A stretch of 64,000 nt of DNA from Deltaproteobacteria bacterium (GCA_016218765.1 JACRCZ010000056.1:28162-92161); one strand, 5' to 3'. Positions 943 to 54,636 are shown, counted from the first letter of the stretch. Notes: generated by a model from the letters alone, not told the origin. Program-made: numbers and translations.

Positions 943-3900
943 GCCCCACTCCCCCACGGGCCCGGGGCGATCGCTCCGTTCGGGCACATCTGGGCGCAGA
1001 CGCTGCAGCCGTTGCACGACGTCGCATCGATCGCCGCCTTGCCCTCGCGCACCACGATCGCCGGGCAGGCGAGCGTCTCCACGCACGCCAGGCAGTGCCC
1101 GCACATCCCGCACGCCAGGCAGCGCGCCGCCTCCGCCTGCGCATGGTCCTGAGCGTCTCCCTCCCACAACCGCCGCTCACGGACGACCCGCCCCGGCTCG
1201 GGCACCTGCCACGAATCGTCGGTCCGCACGGCCGGCAAGTCGAGCGGCGCGGCGGCGGCGCCGCGGAGAAACACATCGATGCCCCAGGCGGCACGCTTGC
1301 CGGCCGCGATGGCGTCGACCACCGTCCACGGCCCGCTCACGGCGTCGCCACCGGCGAAGACGCCGGCGCGCTTCGTCGCCAGGGTCGTCGCGTCGACCTC
1401 GATGCGACCCGCCGGGTCGACCGCAAGTCCCAGCGCTTCCGCCGGTCCCGGATGGCCTTCCTGTCCGACGGCGACCACGACGAGGTCCGCATCCAGCTCG
1501 AATTCCTCGCCGGGGACGGGCACCGGGCGCGCGCGTCCCGAGCCGTCCGGCTCGACCAACCGCATGCGTGCGCACCGCAACCCCGCGACCCGGTCGTCCC
1601 GCCGGAGCACCTCGACCGGTCCCGCCAGGAGCTCGAACCGCACGCCCTCGCGTTCGGCGGCCTCGCGTTCCCCGGGTTCGGCGGACATCTCGGCCGCGGT
1701 GCGCCGGTAGGCCACGACGACGGAGCCGGCCCCTTGGCGCCGCGCGGTGCGGGCGGCATCGATCGCGGCGTTCCCGCCGCCGACGACGACGACCCGCGCG
1801 CCGGGCAGGCGCCGCGGGTCCCACGTCGCGCCTCCGGGGAGCGGCGAGGCGTCCGCCGCCGCCGCGAGCAGGTCGAGCGAATCGACGACGCCCTCCCCTG
1901 CCTCGCCCGGCACGGCGAGCCGCCGCGTGCGTCCGGCGCCCGTCGCCAGGAACAGCGCGTCGAAGCGCTCGGGGCCGGCGAGCAGTGCCTGCGCGTCGAC
2001 GTCCCGGCCGAGCTCAGCGCCCATCCGCAGCGTGACGCCCATCCGCCGGATGACGTCGATCTCGCGGCGCAGCACCTCGCGCGGCAGGCGGTGCGCGGGG
2101 ATGGCCGAGGCCATCAATCCGCCCGGCTCGCGCGCCCGGTCGAACACCGTCACGTCGTGGCCCCGGAGCCGCAGCTCGTACGCGGCTTGCAGCCCCGCGG
2201 GACCGGCGCCCACGACGGCGACACGCTTGCCCGTCGGCGACACGGCGGCCGCGCGGGCCAGGAGGTAGTGCTTCTCCGGCGGATCGTCGCTCGCGGCGGC
2301 ATGACGCTTGAGCGCGAGGATGGCCAGAGGGTCGTCGAGCTTCGCGCGCACACAGGCGGTCTCGCAGGGGTGGTGGCAGACGTGCCCGAGCGTCCCCGGG
2401 AAGGCGACGCGCTCGCGAATCAGCTCCAGCGCGGCGCGCGGCCGGCCGGCCGCGACGTGGGTGACGTAGCCCATGGCGCAGATTCCCGCGGGGCACGCCG
2501 CGGTGCAGGGCGGCGTGGGGGGCACGGCGGGACGAGTGCGCGCCGCCGAGGATCCGAACAGCTCCAGGCGGCGGGCGGAGCGGAACACCTTCGTGGCGGC
2601 GTCGAGCGGCACGGAACAGGGGCTTCGATCCGCGGTGGTGCCGCAGGTGCAGCAGTCGCCGGCCGCGACCTCGAACGGCGCCTTCGCCACGGTCCCCGCC
2701 GGCGGCTCGGGGTGCAGCCGGCACGGGGCGCGGAACAGGACGACCGCGACGCCGTCGTGCGCGATGGCGCGGCGGAGGCCCTGCACGGCGCCGGCGGTGT
2801 CGAGCGGGTCGAGGATCTCGAGGTGGGTGACGCCGCAGGCGCGGACGAGGTCCTCGATCTTCGCGTGGCGGAAGGCGCGGCCGGCGCGCTGGGCGGTGCC
2901 CGGATGCGGCTGGTGGCCGGTCATGGCCGTGGTGAGGTTGTCGAGGATGACGACGACCTGGCGGTACCCGCCGTGGACGGCGTTGAGCAGGCCGGTGATG
3001 CCGGAGTGGAAGAACGTCGAGTCGCCGATGTAGGCGAAGACCGGCTGGTCGGTCTGGCGCGAGAGCGAGGAGGCCAGGTTGATCGCGCCGCCCATGCAGA
3101 TGAGGTGGTCGGCCTGGTGGAAGGGCGGGCCGTAGCCGAGGGTGTAGCACCCGATGTCGTTCTCGAAGATCGCGCGGTCGCCGGTCGCCACCTTGGCGGC
3201 GTAGAACGCGGCGCGGTGCACGCAGCCCGCGCAGAGCACGGGCGGCCGGGGGGGGACGGCGAGGGCAGGGCGTGCGGGAGGGGGAGGAGGCGTCCACGCC
3301 GCGCCCGTCAGGGCGGCCACGGCGCCGGTCATCAGCGCCGCGTTGAACTCTCCCGTGCGCGGCAGGTGGCCCGAACGCTTGCCCAGCACCTGGGGCCGGC
3401 GCCGCGCGCGGAACGCCGCCAGCTCGACCTCGTGTTCCAGGAACGGCTCCAGCTCCTCGGCCACGAGGATCCGCCGCTTCCAGCGCAGGAACCGGCCGAG
3501 CATCTTCTCCGGCACGGGCCAGGTCATCCCCAGGCGCAGGACGGCGACCTGCTCGGCGACGCCGAGCGCGGACAGCGCGTCGAGCGCGTAGGCGTGGGCG
3601 ATGCCCGAGGCGACGATGCCGACGGTGCCTTCGCCGGCGGCGACATTGAAGGGTGAACTTTCCGAGATGCGGGCCGCCCGCGCCATCGCCTCGAAGTGCC
3701 GCCGGCGATTGGCCGGCGCGTTGGCGGGCATGTTCACGAAGCGGCGCGGGTCCCGGACGATGGCGGCGGGCGGCGGACGGATGGGCAGGATGTCGCCCAG
3801 CGTCACCGCGCCGCGCATGTGGGCCAGCCGCGTCGTGATGCGCAGGATCACGGGCAGCCCGACCTCCTCCGAGATGTCGAAGGCCGCGCGCGCCATGCGC

Positions 3901-8197: not shown

Positions 8198-11100
8198 CTA
8201 GCCCAGATACCCCCGCCTAGCCAAACCGAAGGGCAATGGCACCGAAGGGACGGAGGCGGGCGCGGCGGAGGAGGGATCCACTTCCATCATCGCCCATGCG
8301 GTCGCGACGGAGTCGTCGAGGACGTAGCGGGCGGTGAGGGTGCGGCCGCCGATGCTGGCGCGGTGGGCCTCGGCCTCGCCGACCAGCTCGACCGTCGCCT
8401 CGCCTTCGTGCATCCCGACCACACGCACGTCGCGCGGGTCGACGGCCATGCCAACCCCCAGGGCCTTCGTGACCGCCTCCTTCAGCGTCCACAACACGGT
8501 CGCGCCGTCGCCGTTGAGCCCGACCGCGCCGGCCAACCGCGCCTCGTCGTCCGTCAACACGTGACGCACGAACGCCTCGTCCCGCGGCTCCACACGCTCG
8601 ACGTCGACTCCCACGCGGGTGCCGGAATTCCGCGGCGCCAGCACCGCGATCGCCCTCCCCGCCCCGTGCGAGATGGCCAGGAGCGGCAAGAGGTGCTCCA
8701 GGTCCGTGCGACCCGCAACGCGCACCACCGGCGCGCCGCGGGGATCCGCCGCCACGCCGATGTCCTTGTCCCGGATCGCCGCGCCCTCCGTTTCCAGCAG
8801 GAACGCCGACACCAGACGCTTGGCGGCGACTCGCCCGCCCAGCCAGTCGACGCGGCGCTTGCGCGACCCGATCTGCCGGAACAACGTCGCCTCGGCCGGC
8901 CCCAGCACCGCCGCGGCCACCACGTCCGCACTCGCCGCCAGCACGTCCAACCGCACGTCGACGCTCTCGGGCGAATCGAGGAACGACGCCGTCGCCGGCC
9001 GCGCCCCGGCCAACGGACCGGTCTCGATCAACGCCACGTCGCGCAGCCGCTCGAACACCGCGCCGTCCTCCCCGAGCAGCTCGACGTCGAAGACGTGCAC
9101 GCGCGCGCCGGTTCCGGCGGCGGTCGTTCCTTCCTTGGCCCGCACGCGGACCACGATCTCCCGGCCGGGCGCCGGCGTGTCGAGACGTTCCGCGCGGCCG
9201 ATCCCGTGCGGCAACGCATTCACGCCGTGACGGCACATCGTCCAGAGCCCGGCGGCCTGCAACCCGATCTCGCGCAGGCGCGGCCCGCAGAGGTCCCCGA
9301 ACGTCGCATCGGCCGCCGACGGCGGAATCACCGCCCGCGCGACGAGCCCCTCCGGACCCACGCCCGTCGCCGCTGTCAGCACCCGGAAGCTCGGACCGTG
9401 GAAGAAGTGCCGGTAGATCTCCGGCGCTTCGGGCCCGCGCGCTTCCAGCAGCCGCAGTTGGCCCAGCGGCCCCAGCGTCGGGTCCCCCTTGGCGCTCCTT
9501 TGCGTTCTTGGCGCACTTTGCGCGAAATCCCTTCCCCCGTCGGACATCGCCGCGGCCTTCGCCCGGAAGTGCACCGCCTCCAGGGGTCGTCCCGTCGCCG
9601 CGGTCGAGCGCGACTCGAGCACGCACTCCACGCCGTCCGCTCCGCGCTTCGCCCGCGCGACGACCGTCACCGGCCGCCCCGGATGGGCGCGAACGGGGCG
9701 CTCGAAGGACACGTCCTCGATCGCCACGTTGCCCGCGCCAAGAACGCGGCGAGCGGCCTGGGTCATCAACTCCAGCCCGACGACGCCCGGGAGGACCGGG
9801 ATGCCCTCGATCACGTGATCGAAGAGGAAGGACTGCCGTTCGGGATCGAGGACCAGCGAAACCTCGGCCTCATCGACGGGGGCCGCGAGTCCGATGCCGC
9901 CTTCGCGGAGTTCGGCGGCAGAACCGTCGAACGACTTCGGGGCCGGAAGCGAAGGAACCATGACCGCGGGCGCAGCCGCGACGCTCGCCGCCTCGCCGGC
10001 GATACGGGGTTTCGCGAGCGCGCCGAGCTTCCCGCAGACGACGACCTCGCCGATGGCGCCGCGGTCGATGAGGTCAGCGGCGAGGGGCACGCCGATCTCC
10101 GGCGGCAGGAGGTCGACGCCGCGCTCGACGAGGATGGTGCGCATGCCGCCCGCGACGGCCATGCCGATGCCGTCCCAGCCGGTCCAATCGATGGCCAGCG
10201 CGCGCGTCGCCGGGTCGTTCGAGGTGATCTCCCACGCCAGGCGCGCGACGGTCTCGTTGGCCGCGGAGTAGTCGATCTGGCCTTCGTTGCCGAAGCGCCC
10301 GGCGACCGAGCCGAAGACCGTGAAGAACGCGGGGCGGTCGTCGCGCACCAGGGCCCACAGGTGCAGGGCGCCCAGCGCCTTGCCGCGAAAGACGCGGTCG
10401 AAGCCGGCCGCGGTCTTCGAGGCCAGGGGCCGGCTCTCCTCGACCCCGGCGCCGTGGACGACGCCGCCGATGCGGCCGAAGCGCTTCCGCACGCCGTCGA
10501 GCGCCCGCGCCACCGCGTCGCGATCCGAGAGATCGCACGACTCGTAGTGGACCTCGGATCCCGCCGCGCGGTAGGCGGTCAGCGCGGTCGCGGCGCCCTT
10601 CGCCCGGCGCAGCGGGACCAACTCGGCGTCGACGCGCGCCGGCGTCACGCGCTCGCCCATCGCCGTCAGGCGCTGCCGGATCGCGGCCCGCTCGGCCTCC
10701 AGATCCAGGTTCTCGGCGCCTTCGGGCGGCCGCGCCACGATGTCGAGCACCGCCAGGCGGCAGCGGTGCCGCCGCGCCAGCTCCGCGCCGATCGCCGCGG
10801 TGATGCCGCCGGCGCCGCCGGTGAGCACGACGACCGATTCGGGACCGAGGTCGGGCGAGCCGGCCGACGGGACCTCGCGCGCCAGCGCCGGCGAGCGCCT
10901 GCCGCCCGCTACCCCGACCTCGACCATGCCGTCCGCCGTCGCGGCCTCGGCCAGAATCGCCCCGACGACATCCGCGGCGCCGTTCAGCGGCGACACGTCG
11001 ACAGCCTTCACGACCGCCTGCGCCCACTCGCGCGCCACGGCCTTGGTGGCGCCGGTGAGCGCGGCGCCCAGCGTCGAGCCGGCCGGAGCGGTGCCGATGC

Positions 11101-14100
11101 CGCACGAGCCGCCGTTGCGGGTCAAGGTGATCAGGAACGAGTCGGCCACGGGCGTCCCGGCCTGCCGCTCGAAGGTCCGCGCCAGGTGGAAGAGGAACCG
11201 CACGCGGCCGTGGACTTGCGCCGCGTCGTCACCGCACGCGTCGGTGATGCCCAGCAGGTTGACGATGCCGAGCGGGCGGCCGACGGCGAAGCAGAAGCCG
11301 AGCGCCGACTCGAGGTCGGCCTCGAGATCGGCGCCGTCGCCCGCCGGCTCCGCGTAACGCAGCGGCAGCACCCGCACGCCCCGGCGCCGCAGCTCGGATT
11401 CGAGCTCACGGGCCCGCGGGCCGCCGTCGCTCGCCACGACCAGCGCACGACCCGCGACGGACGCGGCCTCCGCGGAAGGCGGAAGTCCCTCGTTGGCGAC
11501 ACCCCAGACGCGGAAGCGGCCTCCGCCGAGGTCGCCGAAGTCGATGCTCGTCGGGTCGAGGCGCTCGCCTTCCGGCGCCGGCGGGATGCTCGGCCGCACG
11601 CGGGCGGCGGGCCGCTCGGCCTTCGGCGTCGCGTCGACCGCGCGCAGGGTGTGGCGCACGACCCGGGTCTCCGGCCGCGCGTAGCCGGTCACCGCACGGA
11701 GCCAATCGGCGTGCTTCGTGGCGTCGATCCGCCCGTCGAGACGCTCCGCCACGCGGCGGTAGAGCGCGCAGGCGATCTGCGAGCCGAAGCCGGCGGCCAG
11801 GCGCAAGGCGTACTCGCACTCGTGGGGTCCGCCGCGCGAGAGGTTGAGGTCCCCCAGCTCGGGATCGGGCTCGCGCAGGTTGGGGATCGGCGGCGCCTCG
11901 CCGCGCACGAGCGCGGTGAGCGCGACGGCGTCTTCCAGGCCGGCGCCCATCGGGTGGCCGGTGTAGCCCTTGGTGTTGGTGACCAGGACGTGCCGGGCGT
12001 TTTCCCCGAAGGCGCGGCGCAGGGCGGCGATTTCGGCCGAGGCGCTGCCGCCGCGGGCCGGGGTGTAGGTCTCGTGGGACATGAACAGGCAGCGCGGCGC
12101 CAGGTCGGCGCGGGCGAGGCCGTGGAGGCGCTCCGCGTCCGCGACGAGCGCCTCGACCACCTCGGCCACGTGGCCGCTGTCCAGCCGCAGGGCATGGCCG
12201 CCGCTGTTGGCGCACCGGGTCGCCAGGACTTCCGCGAGCGGCATCACGCCGCGCTCGGCGCACGCCTCGGCGGTCTCGACGATGAGCGCGACGGCGCCCA
12301 TGCCGAGCAGCATGCCGTGGCGCCGCCGGTCGAACGGCAGCGCCGCGTCCTCGGCGCGCTCGTCCGTCGCCGCGGCGCCGGTGGCCAGGAACCCGGTGCC
12401 AATCCACGGCAGCAGCGCGTCGCTCGTCACGTCGTCGGCGCCGACGACGATCACCCGGCGGCAGCGGCCCGAGCGGATCCAGTCCTCGGCGGTCGCCAGC
12501 GCGAGCGACGTCGACGCGCACGCGGCATTGACCTGGAGGTTGGGGCCGGTGGCGCCGGTGAACGCGGCCACCTGGGCGTGCCCCAGGGCGAGCACCTCGA
12601 GCAGGAACGTCCGCGAGAACGACTTGGACGCGCCGCCGTTGTTGCGGGAGGCGATCTCGGAGGCGAAGCGGTCGTAGCCCGGGAAGGCCGAGGCGAAGAT
12701 CACTCCGGTCTCGCGGCCGACCGCCTCGGGCAGGCGCCAGCCGGCGCCGACGAACCCGCCGTTGCGCGTCGGCCGCTTCGTCTCGACCAGCGGCAGCCCG
12801 GCCTCGCGCAGCGCCTCGACCGTCGCCGCCAGCGCGAGGCGCGAGGTGGCGTCCAGGGTGCCGTCCAGCTCTTCCGAGGCGCCGTAGTCCTCGACCAGCC
12901 GCACGTCGTGGCCACGCGCGGCGAGCCGGATCACGTCGTCCGTGCTCTTCACCGCCGTCATCGTGGGCTCGCCGTCGGCGGCCTTGACGACGCGGACGAC
13001 GTTCTTGCGCACCATCTCCTGGCGCAGCCCTTCCGGGACCGAGTCGAACAGGGTCTCGCCGCGCAGCAGGCGATCGAAGTGGGCGGGGTCGAACGGGTCG
13101 TCGACGCCGGGCAGGCCGAGCGCGAGGCCGCTCACCACGACGGGAGTGCGGGAGGGGCGCTCGACGACGACGGGGGGCGGTGGGACGGAAGGGGGGCGGG
13201 AGGGAGTCGTCGGTTTTCGGTTTTCGGTTTTCGGTTCCGGGCCGGACCCCGCATCCGAACCGCGGGCTTCAGCCCGCGGCTGAGCCGAGGCACCCAGGCG
13301 CAGGTCCAAGCCCGGGGAGCGGGCGTCGAGGTCGACGGGGACGCCGTCGGCCCAGAGGGTCGCCAGGCCCTCGAGCAGCGAGCGGATCTCGCCGCGCTTG
13401 GGGAGGTTGGTCGTGCAGGCCGTCACGCAGCGTCCGGCGAGGATCTCGCCGACGAAGCCGCTGAGGGCCTTCTTCGGGCCGCACTCGACGAAGACCGCGA
13501 CGCCGGACGCCGCCATGCGCTCGACGATGCCGATGAACTCGACCGGCGAGGCGACCTGGCGCGCGAGCAGCGTTCGGATGCCGTCCGGGGAGTCCGGGTA
13601 CGGCTCGGCGTTGACGTTGGAGTAGACGGGGATGGCCGGCGCGTGCACGTCGGCCGCGTCGAGCACCTGGCGCAGCGGGACGGAGGCGGATGCGACGACG
13701 GCGGAATGGAAGGCGTGGGAGACCGGCAGGCGCGTGCACGGCACACCGCGGGCGTCGAACAGCGCCATCGCCTTGCGCACGGCGTCGGTGGCGCCGGCGA
13801 TGATGGTCTGGGAGGGCGAGTTCTTGTTCGCGGGGAGGACGTAGCCCTCGACCTGCCGCAGGACGTCCTCGACGACGCCGAGCGGCGCGGCGACGGCGGC
13901 CATCCAGCCCGGGTCGCCGCCGGCCGGCGTCGCGGCGGCCATCTCGCGGCCGCGCGCCGCGACGATGCGCAGCGCCTCGTCGACGCGCAGCACGCCGCCG
14001 ACGACGCACGCGGCATACTCGCCCAGCGAATGTCCGGCCACCACGTCCGGCCGCAATCCGTGCTCGCCGAGCAGCCGGGCGATGGCGACGTCGCAGGCGA

Positions 14101-17074
14101 CCATGGCGGGCTGCGTGATGGTGGTCATGCGCAGCGCCGCTTCCGCATCGCCGCCGGCCTCGCCGAAACCCGCACCGAAGATGAAGCTCGTCAGCGGCCG
14201 GCCAAGGATCGGCTCCATCACGGCGTCGGCCTCGCGCAGCGTCTCCGCCACGACCGGATGCCGGCGCGCCAGTTTTTCGCACATCCCGACCCACTGCGAG
14301 CCCTGGCCGGGGAAGAGCCACGCGGTCTTTCCCTCGGGCCGCGGCTGCTGCGGCCCGCGCAGGAAGACTCCCTTCGTGGCGAGGGTGGTGCGGCCCTTGC
14401 CGCCGAGGAGCGCGTCCATGGCCAGGCGGGCCTGGCCCGCCAGCTCGCCGATCGAGGTCGCGGCGAGCGCCGCGCGCCACGGCATTTCCTGTCCGGCGCG
14501 CCGTGAAGCCGCGAGGCGGCGGAGCTCGCCGCCCGCATCGCACTCGGCGGCCAGCGACCGCAAGGCATACGCCAGCGACTGCTCGTCGACTCCGCCCAGC
14601 GTGACGACCTCGCCGTCGAGCTCGGGCGTGGGGGGCGCCGCCGGAACGACCGCGGCCGCACTCGCCGCCGTCGCCGACGGCGCCGTCGGGTCCCCCGTAT
14701 CCGAACCGCGGGCTTCAGCCCGCGGCTGAACGTCGGCGGAAGCCGCACCCTGGCCCCGAAGGGACTCGGCGACTGTGCCGCCGAGCAGGGTGCGGTTCGG
14801 TTCGCGGAGGGTCGGGGCCGCCGCCGACGTCGCCGCGCCCACGGTCTCGATGCGTTTCATGACGTAGTCGGCGAGGTCGCGGAGGCGCGGGTAGTCGGCC
14901 AGGCGGAACTTCTCGTCCCGCGGCAGCCCGTAGCGCTCGCGCACGGAGGCGAGGATCTCGGCCTGCTTCACCGTATCGACGCCGAGGTCCGCTTCCAGCT
15001 CGAAGTCCAGCTCGATCTCCGCCGCGTCGTACCCGGTCTTCGCGCACAGCACGTCGATCAGCGCCTTGGCCACGTCGTCCGGGTGGTGGCCGGGCGTGGG
15101 CGCCGCAGGCGCGCTCGCCGGTGCCGCCACGGGCGTCGCGGGCTGCGTGGCGCCCCTACCGGTCAATTCCACCGGCGTGGTCGGGGTCGGGGACACCGGA
15201 GGAGGGGCCGGCGTCGCGGGCGCACTCGCCGTCGGCGCCGAGGGCGCCGCCGGCTGCGTGGCGCCCCTACCGGTCGACTCGTGCGCCGTCGCGGTTCCGC
15301 CCACGGTTTCGATGCGCCGGACGACGTAGTCGGCGAGGTCGCGGAGGCGCGGGTAGTCGGCGAGGCGGAACTTCTCGTCCCGCGGCAGGCCGTAGCGCTC
15401 GCGCACGGAGGCAAGGATCTCCGCCTGCTTGACGGTGTCGACGCCGAGGTCCGCTTCCAGCTCGAAGTCCAGCTCGATCTCGGCCGCGTCGTATCCGGTC
15501 TTCGCGCAGAGCACGTCGACCAGCGCCTTTTCCACCTGGGCACGATCCACCATTTCCGCCTCCCCGACCGGCGCGACCGGCTTCGCCGGCTGCGCCTCTG
15601 CAACGACCACCGTCCCGCCGGGCCCCCCGGCGGACTGTTCGGGCACCGTCACGCGGCTCTTGCCGGCCGATTGCGGCCGCCATTCCTCGAGCACGACATG
15701 GAAGTTGGTTCCGCCGAATCCGAACGCGGAGACACCGGCGCGCCTCGGCTCGCCCGCCGGCGGCTCGCTCCACGGCTCGGCCTCGGTCTGGATCCGGAAC
15801 GACGACCCTTCGATCCCGCAAGCGGGGTTGTGGCTGGCGAAGTGCATGGTGGGCGGGAGCACGCGGTGGTGGAGCGCGAGGGTGGCCTTCAGCAGGCCGA
15901 CCGCTCCCGCAGCCGCCTTGAGATGCCCGATCTGCGACTTGACGGAGCCCAGGGCCACGGGGCGCGACTTGCGCCCGTCGCCCCACACCTGGTGCAGGAC
16001 GGTCGCCTCGGCGGCGTCGCCGACACGGGTCGAGGTGCCGTGCGCTTCGATGAGGTCGACCGTCGCGGGGTTCACGCCGGCCGCGGCGTACGCGCGGCGC
16101 ACGGCGCGGAGCTGGCCCTGGGGGTTCGGCGCGGTGATGCCCTTGCCGCGCCCGTCGCTGGACCCGCCGACCGCGCGGACCACGGCGTAGATGCGGTCGC
16201 CCGCCCGCTCGGCGTCCTCGAGCCTCTTGAGCACGAACACCGCACAGCCCTCGCCCATGACGAAGCCGGTGGCTCCGGCGTCGAACGGGCGGGAGCCGTC
16301 GGGGGAGAGCGCGCCGATCTTGCAGAACTTGACGTAGGTGGCGGCGCTCATGCCGGTATCGACGCCGCCGCTGACGACGACGTCGCATTCGCCCGCGCGC
16401 AGGGCGCGGCCGGCGGACGCCAGCGCGGCCAGCGAGCTGGCGCAGGCGGCGTCGACGGTGTAGTTCGAGCCGCCGAGGTCGAGGACATTGGCGACGCGGC
16501 CCGCGATCACGTTGGACAGCTCGCCCGGCATCGTGTCCTCGGTCAGCACCGGCAGCGGTCGCTTGTAGTTCGCTTCCACCGAGCGCAGCAGGCGATCGCG
16601 CAGCTCGGCCGGCAGGTCGCTCCAGCCGTCCGCGGCGACGAGCGCCCGGGCGAACTCCGGGAAGAGGACGCGCGCGGCGGTCTTCTCGCGGCGGTCGCCG
16701 CCCAGGGCATTGCCGAGGATGACGCCGCAGCGTTCGCGATCGAGCGCGTCTCCCGCGTCGCGCAGCGCGTCCTCGACGCTCGCCAGGGCGACCCGCTGCG
16801 CGTCGTCCATGGAATCGACGACGGCGGGCGGAAGGCGGAAGCGCTTGCGGTCGAAGGCGAAGCCGGTCAGGAACCCGCCAATGCGGCTGTAGGTCCGATC
16901 GGGCGCCGCGGGATCGGGCGACCAGTACAGCGCCGAGTCCCAGCGCTCGGGCGGCACCTCGCGCACGCCGTCGCGACGCGCCAGCACGCCCTCCCAGAAC
17001 TCGCCGGCGTCGAGTCCGATCGGCGTTCGCGCGCCGACGCCGACGATGGCGACGTCGAGCTTTTCCCCTGCCAC
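8198..17074 (-). CDS. Iterative type I PKS/FAS-like megasynthase: KS-ACP-ACP-AT-KS-(structural KR)-KR-DH-PPTase, about 2958 aa
   Basis: KS1: DAACASS, HGTST, KSQIGH. Two ACPs: LEADLGVDTVKQAEIL. AT: FPGQGSQ, GHSLG, HAFH. KS2: NAACAS, SHETYT, KGYTGH. KR: TGGAGGIT, YSAAN. DH: HVIEGIPVLPG. Sfp-type PPTase: GVDVE, WTLKEAVTKA. Start taken at GTG 17074. Confidence 0.93.
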   Translation of the reverse strand: MAGEKLDVAIVGVGARTPIGLDAGEFWEGVLARRDGVREVPPERWDSALYWSPDPAAPDRTYSRIGGFLTGFAFDRKRFRLPPAVVDSMDDAQRVALASVEDALRDAGDALDRERCGVILGNALGGDRREKTAARVLFPEFARALVAADGWSDLPAELRDRLLRSVEANYKRPLPVLTEDTMPGELSNVIAGRVANVLDLGGSNYTVDAACASSLAALASAGRALRAGECDVVVSGGVDTGMSAATYVKFCKIGALSPDGSRPFDAGATGFVMGEGCAVFVLKRLEDAERAGDRIYAVVRAVGGSSDGRGKGITAPNPQGQLRAVRRAYAAAGVNPATVDLIEAHGTSTRVGDAAEATVLHQVWGDGRKSRPVALGSVKSQIGHLKAAAGAVGLLKATLALHHRVLPPTMHFASHNPACGIEGSSFRIQTEAEPWSEPPAGEPRRAGVSAFGFGGTNFHVVLEEWRPQSAGKSRVTVPEQSAGGPGGTVVVAEAQPAKPVAPVGEAEMVDRAQVEKALVDVLCAKTGYDAAEIELDFELEADLGVDTVKQAEILASVRERYGLPRDEKFRLADYPRLRDLADYVVRRIETVGGTATAHESTGRGATQPAAPSAPTASAPATPAPPPVSPTPTTPVELTGRGATQPATPVAAPASAPAAPTPGHHPDDVAKALIDVLCAKTGYDAAEIELDFELEADLGVDTVKQAEILASVRERYGLPRDEKFRLADYPRLRDLADYVMKRIETVGAATSAAAPTLREPNRTLLGGTVAESLRGQGAASADVQPRAEARGSDTGDPTAPSATAASAAAVVPAAPPTPELDGEVVTLGGVDEQSLAYALRSLAAECDAGGELRRLAASRRAGQEMPWRAALAATSIGELAGQARLAMDALLGGKGRTTLATKGVFLRGPQQPRPEGKTAWLFPGQGSQWVGMCEKLARRHPVVAETLREADAVMEPILGRPLTSFIFGAGFGEAGGDAEAALRMTTITQPAMVACDVAIARLLGEHGLRPDVVAGHSLGEYAACVVGGVLRVDEALRIVAARGREMAAATPAGGDPGWMAAVAAPLGVVEDVLRQVEGYVLPANKNSPSQTIIAGATDAVRKAMALFDARGVPCTRLPVSHAFHSAVVASASVPLRQVLDAADVHAPAIPVYSNVNAEPYPDSPDGIRTLLARQVASPVEFIGIVERMAASGVAVFVECGPKKALSGFVGEILAGRCVTACTTNLPKRGEIRSLLEGLATLWADGVPVDLDARSPGLDLRLGASAQPRAEARGSDAGSGPEPKTENRKPTTPSRPPSVPPPPVVVERPSRTPVVVSGLALGLPGVDDPFDPAHFDRLLRGETLFDSVPEGLRQEMVRKNVVRVVKAADGEPTMTAVKSTDDVIRLAARGHDVRLVEDYGASEELDGTLDATSRLALAATVEALREAGLPLVETKRPTRNGGFVGAGWRLPEAVGRETGVIFASAFPGYDRFASEIASRNNGGASKSFSRTFLLEVLALGHAQVAAFTGATGPNLQVNAACASTSLALATAEDWIRSGRCRRVIVVGADDVTSDALLPWIGTGFLATGAAATDERAEDAALPFDRRRHGMLLGMGAVALIVETAEACAERGVMPLAEVLATRCANSGGHALRLDSGHVAEVVEALVADAERLHGLARADLAPRCLFMSHETYTPARGGSASAEIAALRRAFGENARHVLVTNTKGYTGHPMGAGLEDAVALTALVRGEAPPIPNLREPDPELGDLNLSRGGPHECEYALRLAAGFGSQIACALYRRVAERLDGRIDATKHADWLRAVTGYARPETRVVRHTLRAVDATPKAERPAARVRPSIPPAPEGERLDPTSIDFGDLGGGRFRVWGVANEGLPPSAEAASVAGRALVVASDGGPRARELESELRRRGVRVLPLRYAEPAGDGADLEADLESALGFCFAVGRPLGIVNLLGITDACGDDAAQVHGRVRFLFHLARTFERQAGTPVADSFLITLTRNGGSCGIGTAPAGSTLGAALTGATKAVAREWAQAVVKAVDVSPLNGAADVVGAILAEAATADGMVEVGVAGGRRSPALAREVPSAGSPDLGPESVVVLTGGAGGITAAIGAELARRHRCRLAVLDIVARPPEGAENLDLEAERAAIRQRLTAMGERVTPARVDAELVPLRRAKGAATALTAYRAAGSEVHYESCDLSDRDAVARALDGVRKRFGRIGGVVHGAGVEESRPLASKTAAGFDRVFRGKALGALHLWALVRDDRPAFFTVFGSVAGRFGNEGQIDYSAANETVARLAWEITSNDPATRALAIDWTGWDGIGMAVAGGMRTILVERGVDLLPPEIGVPLAADLIDRGAIGEVVVCGKLGALAKPRIAGEAASVAAAPAVMVPSLPAPKSFDGSAAELREGGIGLAAPVDEAEVSLVLDPERQSFLFDHVIEGIPVLPGVVGLELMTQAARRVLGAGNVAIEDVSFERPVRAHPGRPVTVVARAKRGADGVECVLESRSTAATGRPLEAVHFRAKAAAMSDGGRDFAQSAPRTQRSAKGDPTLGPLGQLRLLEARGPEAPEIYRHFFHGPSFRVLTAATGVGPEGLVARAVIPPSAADATFGDLCGPRLREIGLQAAGLWTMCRHGVNALPHGIGRAERLDTPAPGREIVVRVRAKEGTTAAGTGARVHVFDVELLGEDGAVFERLRDVALIETGPLAGARPATASFLDSPESVDVRLDVLAASADVVAAAVLGPAEATLFRQIGSRKRRVDWLGGRVAAKRLVSAFLLETEGAAIRDKDIGVAADPRGAPVVRVAGRTDLEHLLPLLAISHGAGRAIAVLAPRNSGTRVGVDVERVEPRDEAFVRHVLTDDEARLAGAVGLNGDGATVLWTLKEAVTKALGVGMAVDPRDVRVVGMHEGEATVELVGEAEAHRASIGGRTLTARYVLDDSVATAWAMMEVDPSSAAPASVPSVPLPFGLARRGYLG
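9488..9530. repeat. Imperfect 9-10 nt periodic element (cttggcgc/ctttgcg units) in frame inside the PKS DH region
   Basis: cttggcgctcctttgcgttcttggcgcactttgcgcgaaatcc, translated as DFAQSAPRTQRSAKG between the two hotdog halves. Confidence 0.55.
13211..13236. repeat. Heptamer array (CGGTTTT)3CGGTT in frame in the PKS AT-KS2 linker
   Basis: Read directly; encodes EPKTENRKP. A related array lies intergenically at 48974-49004. Confidence 0.85.
13253..13283. repeat. 31-bp palindromic element (CCGCGGGC-TTCA-GCCCGCGG hairpin), copy 1, in frame in the PKS
   Basis: atccgaaccgcgggcttcagcccgcggctga is identical to 14699-14729; both read QPRAEARGSD. Confidence 0.9.
14699..14729. repeat. 31-bp palindromic element, copy 2, in frame in the PKS ACP2-AT linker
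   Basis: Identical to 13253-13283. Confidence 0.9.
15141..15164. repeat. 24-bp GTAG-type REP-like element, copy 1, in frame in the ACP1-ACP2 linker
   Basis: ggctgcgtggcgcccctaccggtc (minus strand GACCG-GTAG-GGGCGCCACGCAGCC) is identical to 15252-15275; reads TGRGATQP. Confidence 0.8.
15252..15275. repeat. 24-bp GTAG-type REP-like element, copy 2
   Basis: Identical to 15141-15164. Confidence 0.8.
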
Positions 17075-17160
17075 TTCACACCCCCGACGACTTCTCCGTT
17101 GCGGCAAGCCGGAAACGGCCGGCCGGACGGCCCGCGGGACGAGCCGTCGCGCCGCGACCA

Positions 17161-17176
17161 AGCGAGAACGGTGCCA
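17161..17176 (-). promoter_or_regulatory. Candidate sigma54 (-24/-12) promoter for the PKS
   Basis: Minus strand TGGCAC-CGTTC-TCGCT has exact GG-N10-GC spacing and lies about 85 nt upstream of the GTG. Confidence 0.4.
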
Positions 17177-17346
17177 CACGGGGCCGGGACCGGACACCGC
17201 CGCCACCGGCCCGACCGCGACGGAATCACGAGCTTCGAAGGGCGGGCGGCCGAGGTGCGCAGCGCGCTACGCACCCGCCAAGGCACCGGGAAGGCATCCG
17301 CCGCTTCGCACGCCGCGAAGCGGCGTTCGCACCCGTTACGCCAGCC

Positions 17347-18326: not shown

Positions 18327-18965
18327 ATGGAGCGAACCGCTACCCTTCCCCATCGGTGTCCATCGGTGTTCATCGGTGGTTTCCTCCTTGTCCTGACCGG
18401 ACTACCCGGCTGCAGGAGTCGCCCGACGGGCGCGGACGGGAGCCACGAGACCGCGGTCACGGCGGCGACGGCGGCCGGGGACGGCGCGGCGACGGCGGCC
18501 GGGGACGGCGCGGCGACGGCGGAGGACGCGGCGACCGCGAGCCCGGTGCCCGGCGCGGAAGGCGGCGCGGAGGCGCCCGCGGCAGGCCCCGAGGACGTCG
18601 TGCGCCGCTACATCCTGCTCGGGGCGGCGGGTGGGGATCTGCGGCAGGCGCGCGAGCTGGTCGATCCGCGCTGCCTCGACGCGGGCGTCGGCCGGGTCGA
18701 GGCCGTGATCCTGCTCGGCGCCCGCATGGCCGTCGGCAGCGTCGAGACGACCCTGCTGGCATCCGACGAGGCGACCGCCAAGGTCGAGGCCCGCATCTCG
18801 GGGTCGGTCTACGCCGCCGACCCGGCCGGCTCCGTGGAGGTGCTCGGAACCAACGTCGACATCCGCGTCGGCGAGCTGAGCGCGAGCGGCATGGTCCGGA
18901 CGGCGACGCTGCGGCTGAAGAAGATCGACGGCTCCTGGCGCGTGACCTGTCGCGAAGCCGAGTGA
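18327..18965 (+). CDS. Hypothetical lipoprotein
   Basis: Signal peptide ending LPGC, an Ala/Thr/Asp linker, and a C-terminal NTF2-like-looking segment (LKKIDGSWRV). Confidence 0.6.
   Translation: MERTATLPHRCPSVFIGGFLLVLTGLPGCRSRPTGADGSHETAVTAATAAGDGAATAAGDGAATAEDAATASPVPGAEGGAEAPAAGPEDVVRRYILLGAAGGDLRQARELVDPRCLDAGVGRVEAVILLGARMAVGSVETTLLASDEATAKVEARISGSVYAADPAGSVEVLGTNVDIRVGELSASGMVRTATLRLKKIDGSWRVTCREAE
18345..18383. repeat. Decamer repeat element (CATCGGTGTY)n inside a signal-peptide coding region, copy 1
   Basis: cttccccatcggtgtccatcggtgttcatcggtggtttc matches 26315-26353 at 37 of 39 positions. Confidence 0.9.
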
Positions 18966-22236: not shown

Positions 22237-23055
22237 TCAGTAGCACGCGCAGTCGGTGGGGGAGGAGCAGATGCCGAAGGTGAAGCCCGAATCGCGGCAG
22301 GTGTCGGAGCAGAGGCCGGGATCGCAGGCGCCGGGATCGGACTTGAGGCCCTCGGCGCCGCCGTCGCCCGGCGGCGGCAGGTCGCCGCCGGAGTCGCGGC
22401 CTTCCCAGCCGTCACGGCCCTCCCAGCCCTCGCGGCCGTCGCGCGGCGGCGGGCCGCCGTCGGTGGGCGGGGGATCGCCGTCGGTGCCGCCGTCCGAGCC
22501 GCCGCCGTCGCAGACGCAGCGGTCGCGGATGCACCGTCCGCCCGAGGCTCCGCCGATCAGGCATTCGATGTTGCAGCTCGTGTCGTCGCAGCCGCCGCCG
22601 TCGGAGCCGCCGTCCGGGCCGCCGTCGGGGCCCCCGCCGTCGCCCATGCCGTCGCGCATCCCGTCGCGCATCCCGTCGCGCATCCCGTCGCGCATCCCGT
22701 CGCGCATCCCGTCGCCCATGCCGTCGGGCGGGGCGTCGGGAATCGCGTCCGCGACGCCGTCGGGCGGCGGGGCGTCGGCGTCCGCGTCCGCGTCCGCGGC
22801 CGAGCCGTCCGGGGCGGGCGTGTCGGCGTCGGCGTCCGCGGCGTCGCTCACGCAGCGGCACGCATCCTCCGCGCAGTAGCCGTCGTCGAAGCCGACCACC
22901 CGGCACGCGTCGCGGCACTCGTCCGGAACGCATCCCCCCGCGCCGGGCACGTCGAAGCACCAGCCCGCGCCGCATCGCGGCTCGTCGAAGTCGGAACGAC
23001 CGCCGCACGAGACGGCGACCCACACGATGACGACCGCGGGAAGAATGGTCTTCAT
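22237..23055 (-). CDS. Lipoprotein with three defensin-pattern (C-x4-C-x3-C-x9-C-x4/5-C-x-C) modules separated by acidic repeat linkers
   Basis: AGGAG RBS and lipobox AVSC. Modules at 22852-22932, 22510-22590 and 22243-22326. Confidence 0.8.
   Translation of the reverse strand: MKTILPAVVIVWVAVSCGGRSDFDEPRCGAGWCFDVPGAGGCVPDECRDACRVVGFDDGYCAEDACRCVSDAADADADTPAPDGSAADADADADAPPPDGVADAIPDAPPDGMGDGMRDGMRDGMRDGMRDGMRDGMGDGGGPDGGPDGGSDGGGCDDTSCNIECLIGGASGGRCIRDRCVCDGGGSDGGTDGDPPPTDGGPPPRDGREGWEGRDGWEGRDSGGDLPPPGDGGAEGLKSDPGACDPGLCSDTCRDSGFTFGICSSPTDCACY
22651..22710. repeat. 12-bp tandem repeat (GTCGCGCATCCC)5 encoding (DGMR)5
   Basis: Five exact units with variant units on each side. Confidence 0.9.
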
Positions 23056-29385: not shown

Positions 29386-31107
29386 ATGAAGGACCTGGTC
29401 GGCCAGCGAATCGCCGGGAAGTACGACGTGACCCAGCGGATCGGGGGCGGAGCGGTGGCCGACGTCTACGAAGCGGTCCACAACCGGCTCAACCAGCGTG
29501 TGGCGATCAAGGTCCTGCGCCGGGAGTTCACCCGCCTGCCCGCGGTGACGCGCCGTTTCCTCACCGAAGGGCGCGCCGCGAGCGCGGTGCGGCACCCCGG
29601 CATCATCCAGGTCTTCGATGTCGACCAGCTCGACACGGGCGAGCTGTACATCGTCATGGAGCTGCTGCAGGGCGACGACCTGGCGGTGGCGCTCGAGCGC
29701 GAGCGCCAGTTCGAGCCGGCGCGGGCGGCGGGGGTGGCGGTCCAGATCCTCGACGCGCTCGACGCGGCCCACCGCGCCGGCGTCGTCCACCGCGACCTCA
29801 AGCCGGAGAACGTCCTGCTGTGGGCCGACGCCCAGGGCCGGGAGCGGGCCAAGATCATCGATTTCGGCGTCGCGCGCCTGGAGCGGGAGGGGCCGGCGGC
29901 GCTGCGCAAGACGGCCGAGGGGACGATCGTCGGCACGCCGTACTACATCTCGCCGGAGCAGGCGCGCGGGGAGCAGGATATCGACCACCGCACGGACGTG
30001 TACGCGGTCGGGGTCATGCTGTTCGAGATGCTGACGGGCGAGCTGCCCTACACAGGCACGTCGGTGCAGGGCATCATCCAGCGGATGCTCGAGGAGCCGT
30101 TTCCCAGCGTCCGGGCGCTCGAGCCGTCGCTCCCCGAATCGCTCGAGGCGGTGATCCTGCGTGCCACGGCGCGGCGTCGCGACGACCGCTATCCTTCCGC
30201 GGCGGCTTTCGCGGACGCGCTGCGCACCGCGACGGGCCTCGGGGTGCCCGCGCACGTGCCGGCTGGCGCCCCGGTGCCGCCGGACACGCGCGAGGAGTCG
30301 GGCGACGAGCGTGCAACGATTCCCGCGCCGGCGGGGTACGAGGTGGAGCTGGCCGAGGCGGTGTCCGCCGAACCCCCGGTGCGGGCCGTACCCCCGACCC
30401 GCCGTCCGCCGTCGCAGCAGACGGCCGAGGCGGTCGCGCTGCCCAAGGTCCAGACGGTGGTCGTGCTTCCGACCCGCCTGTGGCTGTTCGTTCTCGGCGG
30501 GGCCGTCGCGGCCGCGGCGGTCGTCGCGGTCCTCTTCGTGTTCGTCTTCCGCCGGCCTTCCCCGTCCGCGGAGTCGGGAGCCCGGCCGGCCGGCGCGGCC
30601 GTCGAGGCGGGTGCGCCGGGCGGTCCGGCCGCGGGTGCGGTCGCGGCCGGTGACGCGGGCGCCGTCGCGACGCCGTACGCAGGGGCCGGATCGCCGGCCG
30701 ACGCGGCCGAAGCGGGGCCGGCGATCGCCTCGGCCAAGGAGGCCGGCCCGGACGCCGCCGTCGCGCCGCCGGTCCTGCCCGAGGCCGCCGGCGGCGATGC
30801 GGCCACGGTCCGCCTGCTCCGCCTCCCCCGCGGCGCCGTGGTGACGCTGGATGACGTGCCGGTGGAGGCGGTCTTCGCCGCGCCGATCGCGGACTCGCCG
30901 CGCCGCCTGCGGGTCGAGGCGCCGGGCTGGAGGACGTGGGTGCGGACAATCCGCGTCGGCGGGGATCTCGAGGTGGTCGTCGACATGGAGCGGCGGGATG
31001 CCGTTTCGCCGACCGGCGACGGCGGCGGGCCGCGACCCGCCGACGCCGGCTCCTCGCGTTCCGCGGACGTCCCCCGTCCGCTGGCCAACCCGTTCGGCGA
31101 CGCCTGA
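29386..31107 (+). CDS. Hanks-type Ser/Thr protein kinase with a TM helix and extracytoplasmic C-terminal domain
   Basis: IGGGAVADVY, VAIK, HRDLKPEN, DFG, GTPYYISPEQ, DVYAVG, and a TM segment LWLFVLGG...VFVF. Confidence 0.93.
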   Translation: MKDLVGQRIAGKYDVTQRIGGGAVADVYEAVHNRLNQRVAIKVLRREFTRLPAVTRRFLTEGRAASAVRHPGIIQVFDVDQLDTGELYIVMELLQGDDLAVALERERQFEPARAAGVAVQILDALDAAHRAGVVHRDLKPENVLLWADAQGRERAKIIDFGVARLEREGPAALRKTAEGTIVGTPYYISPEQARGEQDIDHRTDVYAVGVMLFEMLTGELPYTGTSVQGIIQRMLEEPFPSVRALEPSLPESLEAVILRATARRRDDRYPSAAAFADALRTATGLGVPAHVPAGAPVPPDTREESGDERATIPAPAGYEVELAEAVSAEPPVRAVPPTRRPPSQQTAEAVALPKVQTVVVLPTRLWLFVLGGAVAAAAVVAVLFVFVFRRPSPSAESGARPAGAAVEAGAPGGPAAGAVAAGDAGAVATPYAGAGSPADAAEAGPAIASAKEAGPDAAVAPPVLPEAAGGDAATVRLLRLPRGAVVTLDDVPVEAVFAAPIADSPRRLRVEAPGWRTWVRTIRVGGDLEVVVDMERRDAVSPTGDGGGPRPADAGSSRSADVPRPLANPFGDA

Positions 31108-54485: not shown

Positions 54486-54636
54486 GGAACCCGTCGCACG
54501 CCGGCGATCGGCCCCGCGTCCCCGGGCCCGTCGCCGCGCCCGCCGCGCCGGCCGGGACGTCGACAATTGACAATCACGCCTTGACGATCCGGTCGAACTT
54601 GGAAGCGCGGCGAGCGACGATTGAGGGAAAACGCCC

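Follow-up and report, generated by a model that had tools for sequence, protein, structure and literature searches.

The window analysed here is a stretch of 64,000 nucleotides from a Deltaproteobacteria bacterium (GCA_016218765.1, JACRCZ010000056.1:28162-92161), part of a metagenome-assembled genome (MAG) of 80% completeness. Its minus strand carries one large gene for a multidomain synthase in which Pfam finds a ketosynthase (KS), two acyl carrier protein (ACP) domains, an acyltransferase (AT), a second KS, a ketoreductase (KR), a dehydratase (DH) and a phosphopantetheinyl transferase (PPTase), in the order KS-ACP-ACP-AT-KS-KR-DH-PPTase. Carrier proteins are, as a rule, phosphopantetheinylated on an invariant serine. 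In both ACP domains of this synthase the position is occupied by threonine, and the same Thr is conserved throughout a large family of homologues that is linked to its own class of PPTase. The features of the gene are as follows.

8198-17206, minus strand: whole synthase gene, 3002 amino acids, GTG start
15659-17056, minus strand: first ketosynthase (KS1), residues 51-516, with the DAACASS Cys at 16433-16453 and the HGT and GH His motifs
15305-15547, minus strand: first carrier domain (ACP1), residues 554-634, motif EADLGVDTVKQAE, Thr591 encoded by ACC at 15434-15436
14843-15085, minus strand: second carrier domain (ACP2), residues 708-788, motif EADLGVDTVKQAE, Thr745 encoded by ACG at 14972-14974
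13475-14320, minus strand: acyltransferase, residues 963-1244, with GHSLG and HAFH
11327-13189, minus strand: second KS-like domain (KS2), residues approximately 1340-1960, with the NAACAST Cys, H and GH
10172-10834, minus strand: ketoreductase, residues 2125-2345, with GGAGGIT and YSAAN
9020-9853, minus strand: dehydratase of polyketide synthase (PKS) type, residues 2452-2729, with HxxxGxxxxP at 9785-9826
8201-8944, minus strand: fused Sfp-type PPTase, residues approximately 2755-3002, with GVDVERVEPRDEAF at 8570-8611 and WTLKEAVTKALGVG at 8450-8491

The database gene call begins 44 codons downstream of the GTG, at 17074, and this later start is the reason for the residue numbering (Thr547 and Thr701) used in a preliminary description of the sequence. 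The KS, AT, KR and DH catalytic motifs reported there as intact are all present, as is the fused C-terminal PPTase with GVDVE and WTLKEA (here WTLKEAVTK), which scores 53.6 bits against PF01648 (cut-off 25). KS2 is not a chain-length factor (CLF) of the Gln type, given that its Cys (NAACAST) and two His are retained.

Both window ACPs read LEADLGVDTVKQAEIL; the residue that in carrier proteins is the phosphopantetheinyl Ser is here Thr. Direct reading of the codons gives ACC at 15434-15436 for T591 and ACG at 14972-14974 for T745 (T547 and T701 when counted from the later start), so the differing codons first reported are correct. The tryptic peptide that spans the site Thr is ...ELEADLGVDTVK. 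Two PP-binding stretches are found in the synthase by PF00550 (E 6.7e-12), and in phmmer alignments to Protein Data Bank (PDB) chains the site Thr falls on the Ser that is phosphopantetheinylated in PigH, CurA, VirA and type II ACPs (DLGVDS, DLGLDS). The AlphaFold2 (AF2) model of ACP1 (pLDDT 89.8) has a standard ACP fold, with Foldseek TM scores of 0.75-0.88 to solved ACPs, and its helix II starts exactly at the Thr. By fold and profile the window ACPs are therefore PF00550 domains, but they do not have the invariant Ser. The sole Ser (in ILASVRE) and the Cys (in VLCAK) of the window ACPs were considered as other acceptors and rejected, as neither is conserved in the family.

Homologues were collected with one search seeded by the ACP region and another seeded by the KS2 region, which has no sequence words in common with the ACPs; half of the 233 homologues came in through KS2 and not through the ACPs. 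In these proteins a purpose-built hidden Markov model finds 897 ACP domains, four of them truncated, and all 893 complete domains have Thr. The suggestion that homologues might mostly have Ser is contradicted by this count, and the family-wide conservation of Thr, proposed as a check, is found. No Ser-type carrier motif is present anywhere in the 233 Thr-type synthases, nor is there a conserved Ser or Cys elsewhere in the ACP domain across the 893 domains. Tandem copy number in the family ranges from 1 to 8, as with the carriers of polyunsaturated fatty acid (PUFA) synthases.

A codon-neutral scan of one genome per prokaryotic species, made with the back-translated motif and the site codon left open (WSN), identified at least 120 loci. 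Among the matches listed, 301 have Thr (ACC 153, ACG 120, ACA 14, ACT 14) and one has Ser; the lone Ser match is a small AT-ACP-ACP protein beside an acyl-AMP ligase, a different and unrelated system. The taxa with the Thr motif among these matches include Acidobacteriota, Chloroflexota, Actinomycetota, Elusimicrobiota, Myxococcota, Bradymonadia, Gemmatimonadota, Rhodothermales and Heimdallarchaeota, with isolates represented by Amycolatopsis sp. NPDC021455 and Mycolicibacterium xanthum Y57. Since the same Thr occurs in 893 of 893 homologous domains and all four ACN codons are used, chance and base-call error are excluded. With the ACP profile, an exhaustive HMMER search through 1.84 billion cluster representatives matched 7969 proteins at E<=1e-3; at the stricter E<=1e-30 the number is 1450. 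Both counts pool Ser-type and Thr-type proteins.

In the Asgard archaeon Candidatus Heimdallarchaeum aukensis (491942-498129 of its contig; L024, G012:C1) the Thr-type synthase has a PPTase domain within its long open frame, and another PPTase, with an equal PF01648 score (52.8 bits), is encoded 2.7 kb downstream in an open frame of 208 aa.

That the window gene is dead, through strain-specific decay or a sequencing artefact, is an explanation to which we give almost no credence. The genome is an incomplete MAG and the gene stands alone, without an enoyl reductase (ER), a thioesterase (TE) or partner genes. Decay is nevertheless refuted by the evidence at hand: the two Thr codons differ, and the 9-kb frame is open with intact catalytic motifs. 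In addition, the GC content at third codon positions is 0.92, typical for coding sequence here, Thr is family-wide, and the synthase is kept in three of four other genomes of the genus, in the one genome of the family that was searched and in four of four genomes of the order.

Ser-type and Thr-type synthases were compared at the protein level in the best 150 representatives of the ACP-profile search, 144 of which were new, with 623 ACP domains. Among the 144 proteins, 102 are pure Thr, 35 are pure Ser and seven are Thr-type with one degenerate ACP-like domain; conserved Ser and Thr motifs do not occur together in any of them. The commonest cores are DTVKQAE (319), DSIKRVE (128), DTVKQVE (58) and DSIKKAQ (34), and the 128 DSIKRVE cores agree with the motif first given as canonical for PfaA ACPs. 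The site residue is coupled to the residue that follows it, with TV 404 and SI 182 against TI 11 and SV 9; a Thr site is followed by Val at +1 and, in most cases, by Ala at +4, and a Ser site by Ile at +1 and, in most cases, by Val at +4. In these alignments the covariation of the site with its helix neighbours looks like packing compensation for the methyl group of Thr.

In the seven proteins with a degenerate extra domain the site is S, A, P, D, Q or G and the motif is lost; by contrast, the DTVKQAE domains are invariant. These ACP-like domains lie at residues 1984-2049 of P0254, 636-712 of P0291, 1837-1918 of P0269, 2189-2255 of P0281, 1808-1877 of P0345, 1149-1228 of P0245 and 9-80 of P0257, with decayed motifs including DLGIDSELF, ELGITSIKM, DLGVKDADL and DLGLTQQQF. 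They may be structural pseudo-ACPs.

The separation of the two classes is also apparent in the window's phylum, where a PUFA-type ACP core is carried by 131 of 401 genomes. Among the phylum matches listed, 38 loci are pure Thr, 34 are pure Ser and none is mixed, and 15 of the 44 listed genomes carry both kinds, at separate loci. Only three changes are required to explain the Ser/Thr label on a tree of KS1 from 125 proteins, compared with a mean of 13.5 when labels are shuffled. The all-Ser protein P0280 (3234 aa; DSVKVAE four times and DSVKSSE) is nested among Thr-type proteins in this tree with 99% support. A second, P0361 (3191 aa), has the fused-PPTase architecture with DSVKQAE in all four ACPs; its ACP1 is divergent and approximately 1100 residues from the others, yet it too has Ser. 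Judged by the label changes in the tree and by P0361, the state of the site therefore switches rarely, and in the whole protein at once.

The window PPTase is complete. Its AF2 model (pLDDT 90.3) has the full two-lobe Sfp-type fold, the best Foldseek match is 4MRT (Sfp-CoA-PCP) over 225 columns, followed by 2CG5 (human AASDHPPT-ACP), with a range of 225-259 columns, and the equivalents of D107, E109, E151, K155 and H90 that mark the Sfp type are present. The only carrier sites available to this enzyme in cis are Thr.

Linkage was assessed in 50 genomes with the Thr motif, in which 40 synthase loci could be placed. A PF01648 domain is on the same contig, 2.4-10.3 kb from the ACPs, in 39 of these 40, and the exception ends at a contig edge; with two to four PPTases per 5-Mb genome, the linkage expected by chance is roughly 1%. 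The distance is 2.4-3.5 kb at 15 loci, where the PPTase is fused or in the next gene, and 8.2-10.3 kb at 24 loci, where it follows a giant acetyl-CoA carboxylase gene. The co-occurrence of Thr with a fused or adjacent PPTase, which the preliminary description had put forward for checking, is thereby upheld. Its proposal that a dedicated cis-PPTase may load Thr, in what would be an orthogonal pair, is supported with reservations: the linked PPTases form a class of their own, but fusion in cis is not the rule, since the PPTase is a separate gene in about two thirds of the family.

To define this class, 84 fused or linked PPTases were aligned with Sfp, the numbering of which was checked against 1QR0. 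The equivalents of Sfp H90, D107, E109, W147, K150, E151, K155 and G160 are invariant or nearly so. Residues specific to the class are R for Sfp D40 (81/84), E for K112 (74/84), R for I114 (81/84) and F for I118 (80/84), a signature that is not seen in the other Sfp-type PPTases of the same genomes, nor in the second PPTase of the window genome. Sfp residues 110-121 face loop I and helix II of the carrier (bioRxiv 10.1101/2025.01.28.635281). Judging from the loci compared, this class would seem always to travel with Thr-type synthases, either fused or nearby. The signature was considered as a cause of Thr acceptance but could not be linked to Thr as such; the all-Ser P0361 keeps R114 and F118, and seven of the 84 Thr-type PPTases are without E112. 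Compared with 73 Thr-type fused PPTases, the PPTase of P0361 has changes at two near-invariant glycines (SHxxG to D, and the Sfp G160 equivalent to V), and in this one case the enzyme might no longer be needed.

Nine genomes with both a Ser-type and a Thr-type synthase have exactly two PPTase domains each. In eight of them, one PPTase sits in a long open frame (2233-4141 aa) approximately 5 kb from the Thr-type ACPs, and in the ninth (G136) a separate, short contig carries the corresponding PPTase. The other PPTase is free-standing, on a different contig or approximately 70 kb from the Ser-type locus, and never adjoins it. On these gene positions, the Ser-type synthase evidently relies on a general PPTase and the Thr-type synthase brings its own. 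A set of 12 genomes believed to be Ser-only was used as a negative control for the PPTase class and proved only partly clean, as three bore signature PPTases; their contigs are cut inside the ACP array, and one contig begins with the tail of a Thr-type ACP. Short-read MAG assemblies break within tandem ACP arrays, and the ACP region is then often missing or split (for example, G326 contigs C107, C309 and C744; L189-L191), and through such breakage a genome can falsely appear to have no Thr-type motif.

The explanation that we favour, and consider probable though well short of certain, is that a dedicated PPTase attaches 4'-phosphopantetheine (Ppant) to the Thr of these ACPs, which would thus be working carriers. 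The invariant Thr with which helix II begins would take the place of Ser and bear the Ppant arm on its hydroxyl. The arm would be loaded from CoA by the C-terminal Sfp-type PPTase of the same polypeptide, through the usual Mg2+/Glu-base mechanism, and the holo-synthase would then act as an iterative PUFA-synthase-like PKS. With KR and DH and without ER or TE, the window synthase resembles the polyene-forming iterative PKSs in its predicted domains. What is observed is where the Thr lies and that it is invariant, that the PPTase is intact and linked to the Thr-type ACPs, and that the PPTase class is separate. From these we infer that Thr itself would be phosphopantetheinylated and that ordinary PPTases would serve it poorly, hence the need for a dedicated enzyme.

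The corresponding change has been made in Escherichia coli, where ACP S36T is not phosphopantetheinylated and cannot support growth (PMC3340395), confirming the earlier statement that Ser-to-Thr blocks modification of this protein. It is the same substitution at the same position, but in a laboratory mutant, whereas in the window family Thr is the conserved natural state. A special enzyme for Thr is plausible because S36T is left unmodified by the ordinary machinery.

It has to be considered whether the Thr is functional but bears something else, either a different CoA-derived or prosthetic group or a direct O-acyl group without a pantetheine arm. Such a view could appeal to the invariance of the Thr, for which a Ppant-Thr precedent was not found, and to the conserved residues that the PPTase class has of its own. 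The enzyme is, however, a complete Sfp-type PPTase with all CoA, Mg and catalytic residues conserved and a fold matching 4MRT. The active sites of KS, KR and DH domains are served by a long, flexible thiol arm, without which a direct O-acyl-Thr could not reach them. This explanation is considered quite improbable.

Alternatively, the Thr-ACPs could be unmodified structural or docking domains, with a free-standing Ser-type ACP supplying the carrier in trans, as the preliminary description had also allowed. In its favour, other contigs of the window genome carry genes for four small carrier proteins of Ser type and for another Sfp-type PPTase, and the unmodified S36T of E. coli would be in keeping with this. 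There is, however, no free ACP gene adjoining the synthase in the window or at three related loci (L009-L011), the tandem copy number behaves as in PUFA-synthase carriers, and a dedicated, intact PPTase would be left without a substrate. Likewise, truly degenerate ACP-like domains lose their motif, and DTVKQAE is invariant. The trans-carrier alternative is disfavoured, because there is no Ser-type carrier in the 233 synthases, there is no other conserved acceptor, and decayed domains look different; we regard it as most improbable.

Contig C61 of the window genome (G000) carries this second Sfp-type PPTase, without the class signature, and three small Ser-type carrier genes (ELDSID, LGIDSMD, LGLDSID), at 18653-18853, 22549-22794, 29779-29988 and 54576-54761 (L005, L002, L008 and L004). 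The C61 carriers and PPTase probably belong to a separate lipid or polyketide cluster.

Several points weigh against attachment of Ppant to Thr by a dedicated PPTase. Foremost among the grounds for caution is the same E. coli S36T result that lends plausibility to a special enzyme, and no description or precedent of Ppant on Thr was found in the literature, the coverage of which was incomplete. Text searches centred on the ACP motif, on Type R organisms and on archaeal PUFA-like synthases likewise brought up nothing relevant. The active-site residues of the PPTase class are unchanged, so that no sequence feature accounts for acceptance of a secondary alcohol, and the charge swap of the signature, set against the Lys at site +2, would equally suit Ser-type DSIK ACPs. 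Canonical Ser-type pfa clusters often have a neighbouring PPTase too (PMC3098273), and for this reason PPTase linkage alone is not diagnostic; one Thr-type relative (L011) has no PPTase within 8 kb. Evidence for the orthogonality of Thr-ACP and PPTase is indirect and genomic, and is weakened by the rare all-Ser relatives: as members of the same architecture, P0361 and P0280 show that Ser is tolerated and that one state can change into the other, so that specificity may not be absolute.

Some of these points would also suit a simpler account, in which Ppant is on Thr but is installed by any broad-range Sfp-type PPTase, the fused or linked enzyme being a convenience like pfaE and no orthogonal pair existing. 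The ordinary catalytic residues, the PPTases that neighbour Ser-type pfa clusters (PMC3098273), the locus without a nearby PPTase and the all-Ser relatives, which retain the architecture and most of the PPTase signature, are what would be expected of it. Set against it are the unmodified S36T of E. coli and the genomes with both kinds of synthase, in nine of nine of which the Ser-type uses a distant general PPTase and a second goes with the Thr-type (fused in eight; on the separate short contig in G136). Ser and Thr ACPs are, moreover, never mixed in one protein, even between divergent ACPs, and the PPTase class is distinct in sequence. This account is considered unlikely.

The stronger form of the favoured explanation, in which a dedicated PPTase modifies Thr, is that O-(4'-phosphopantetheinyl)-threonine occurs naturally in PUFA-synthase-like megasynthases that number in the thousands and come from many bacterial phyla and some archaea, and that the co-inherited PPTase class installs it and housekeeping PPTases do not, as an orthogonal pair. 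From the comparisons made here, the chances that this is so appear evenly balanced.

Among the closest known systems are the tandem ACPs of PfaA, from PUFA synthases served by the PPTase PfaE. They share with the window ACPs the KTGY of helix I, the (L/M)EADLG(I/V)D-x-(I/V)K core and the tandem copies, and the KS, AT, KR and DH types agree; Ser-type relatives in the window's phylum read EADLG(I/V)DSIK. In contrast to PfaA, the window synthase has Thr and Val at the site and +1 and not Ser and Ile, its ACPs lie between KS1 and AT and not in the order KS-AT-ACPn-KR(-DH), it has a second KS in the chain, a fused PPTase and no PfaB, PfaC or PfaD partners, and its score of 900.6 bits on the PfaA model TIGR02813 is below the cut-off of 1010.1.

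The Type R secondary-lipid synthases (a single pfaA homologue, KS-MAT-CLF-ACP(3-6)-KR, with a separate PPTase gene downstream) were described from Koribacter, Solibacter, Elusimicrobium and Roseiflexus (Shulse and Allen 2011, PMC3098273). They belong to the same wider family, as the Thr-type matches include Korobacteraceae, Elusimicrobium and Roseiflexus, and the window synthase is placed in it by its ACP motif, by KS2 (50-55% identity) and by the KS1 tree. Such Thr-type relatives are like Type R in order, KS-AT-KS/CLF-ACPn-KR-DH with a downstream PPTase, sometimes after an acetyl-CoA carboxylase gene. The window clade differs from the Type R order, with only two ACPs, directly after KS1, and a PPTase that is fused and not separate. 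The synthase family has been partly known since 2011, but the Type R paper (PMC3098273) says nothing of its Thr and contains neither the word 'threonine' nor the word 'serine'.

At L009 (6235-23921), L011 (6349-22747) and L010 (17661-19942) the Type-R-like Thr synthases have an acyl-CoA dehydrogenase (ACAD) upstream, accompanied at L009 by electron transfer flavoprotein (ETF) alpha and beta and an Fe-S oxidoreductase. Downstream of all three is a single-chain acetyl-CoA carboxylase of 1859-1878 aa (biotin carboxylase, biotin carboxyl carrier protein, carboxyltransferase). The ACAD/ETF set could substitute for the missing enoyl reductase. The window synthase has no neighbouring ACAD, ETF or carboxylase genes.

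The enediyne PKSs (PKSE; SgcE, CalE8, DynE8) are iterative, highly reducing type I synthases of the order KS-AT-ACP-KR-DH-PPTase, related to PUFA synthases. They are like the window synthase in the order KR-DH-PPTase and in having no ER, and their C-terminal PPTase activates their own ACP (for the CalE8 ACP, PMC3107222). They are unlike it in lacking a second KS and in having a single ACP, of Ser type, that follows the AT; the PPTases are likened by position and not by homology. The enediyne cassette (E3/E4/E5/E10) is not beside the window synthase, which has a TauE exporter, a kelch-repeat protein on the opposite strand and a thymidine kinase as neighbours. The alpha subunit of fungal type I fatty acid synthase (FAS) also has a PPTase at the C-terminus of the synthase that it activates, and fungal FAS PPTase domains (7bc4, 7q5s, 2was) are the best PDB sequence matches to the window PPTase. 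The fungal enzyme is, however, single-lobe, AcpS-like and acts on a Ser-ACP, whereas the window PPTase is two-lobe and Sfp-type.

No ER, TE, free ACP or other partner gene was found beside the synthase in the window, and an exact-sequence look-up of the window protein returned no matching record. Within the chain, TGRGATQP is repeated in frame between the ACPs (about 15139-15162 and 15250-15273) and the linker peptide QPRAEARGSD is present on either side of the AT (13253-13283 and 14699-14729).

The invariant-Ser rule underlies the annotation of FAS, PKS and nonribosomal peptide synthetases, the calling of 'inactive' carrier domains and PPTase-based protein labelling. Motif-based tools may misjudge Thr-type carrier domains. 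If Ppant is indeed carried by Thr, so large a natural family would add a new form of a universal modification, and it could serve pathway engineering and site-specific labelling as a ready source of an orthogonal ACP/PPTase pair. The Thr motif is a handle on a synthase family that is widespread in Acidobacteriota, Chloroflexota, Actinomycetota, Myxococcota, Elusimicrobiota and Heimdallarchaeota, and, if the explanation is true, a cell could run Ser-type and Thr-type synthases side by side.

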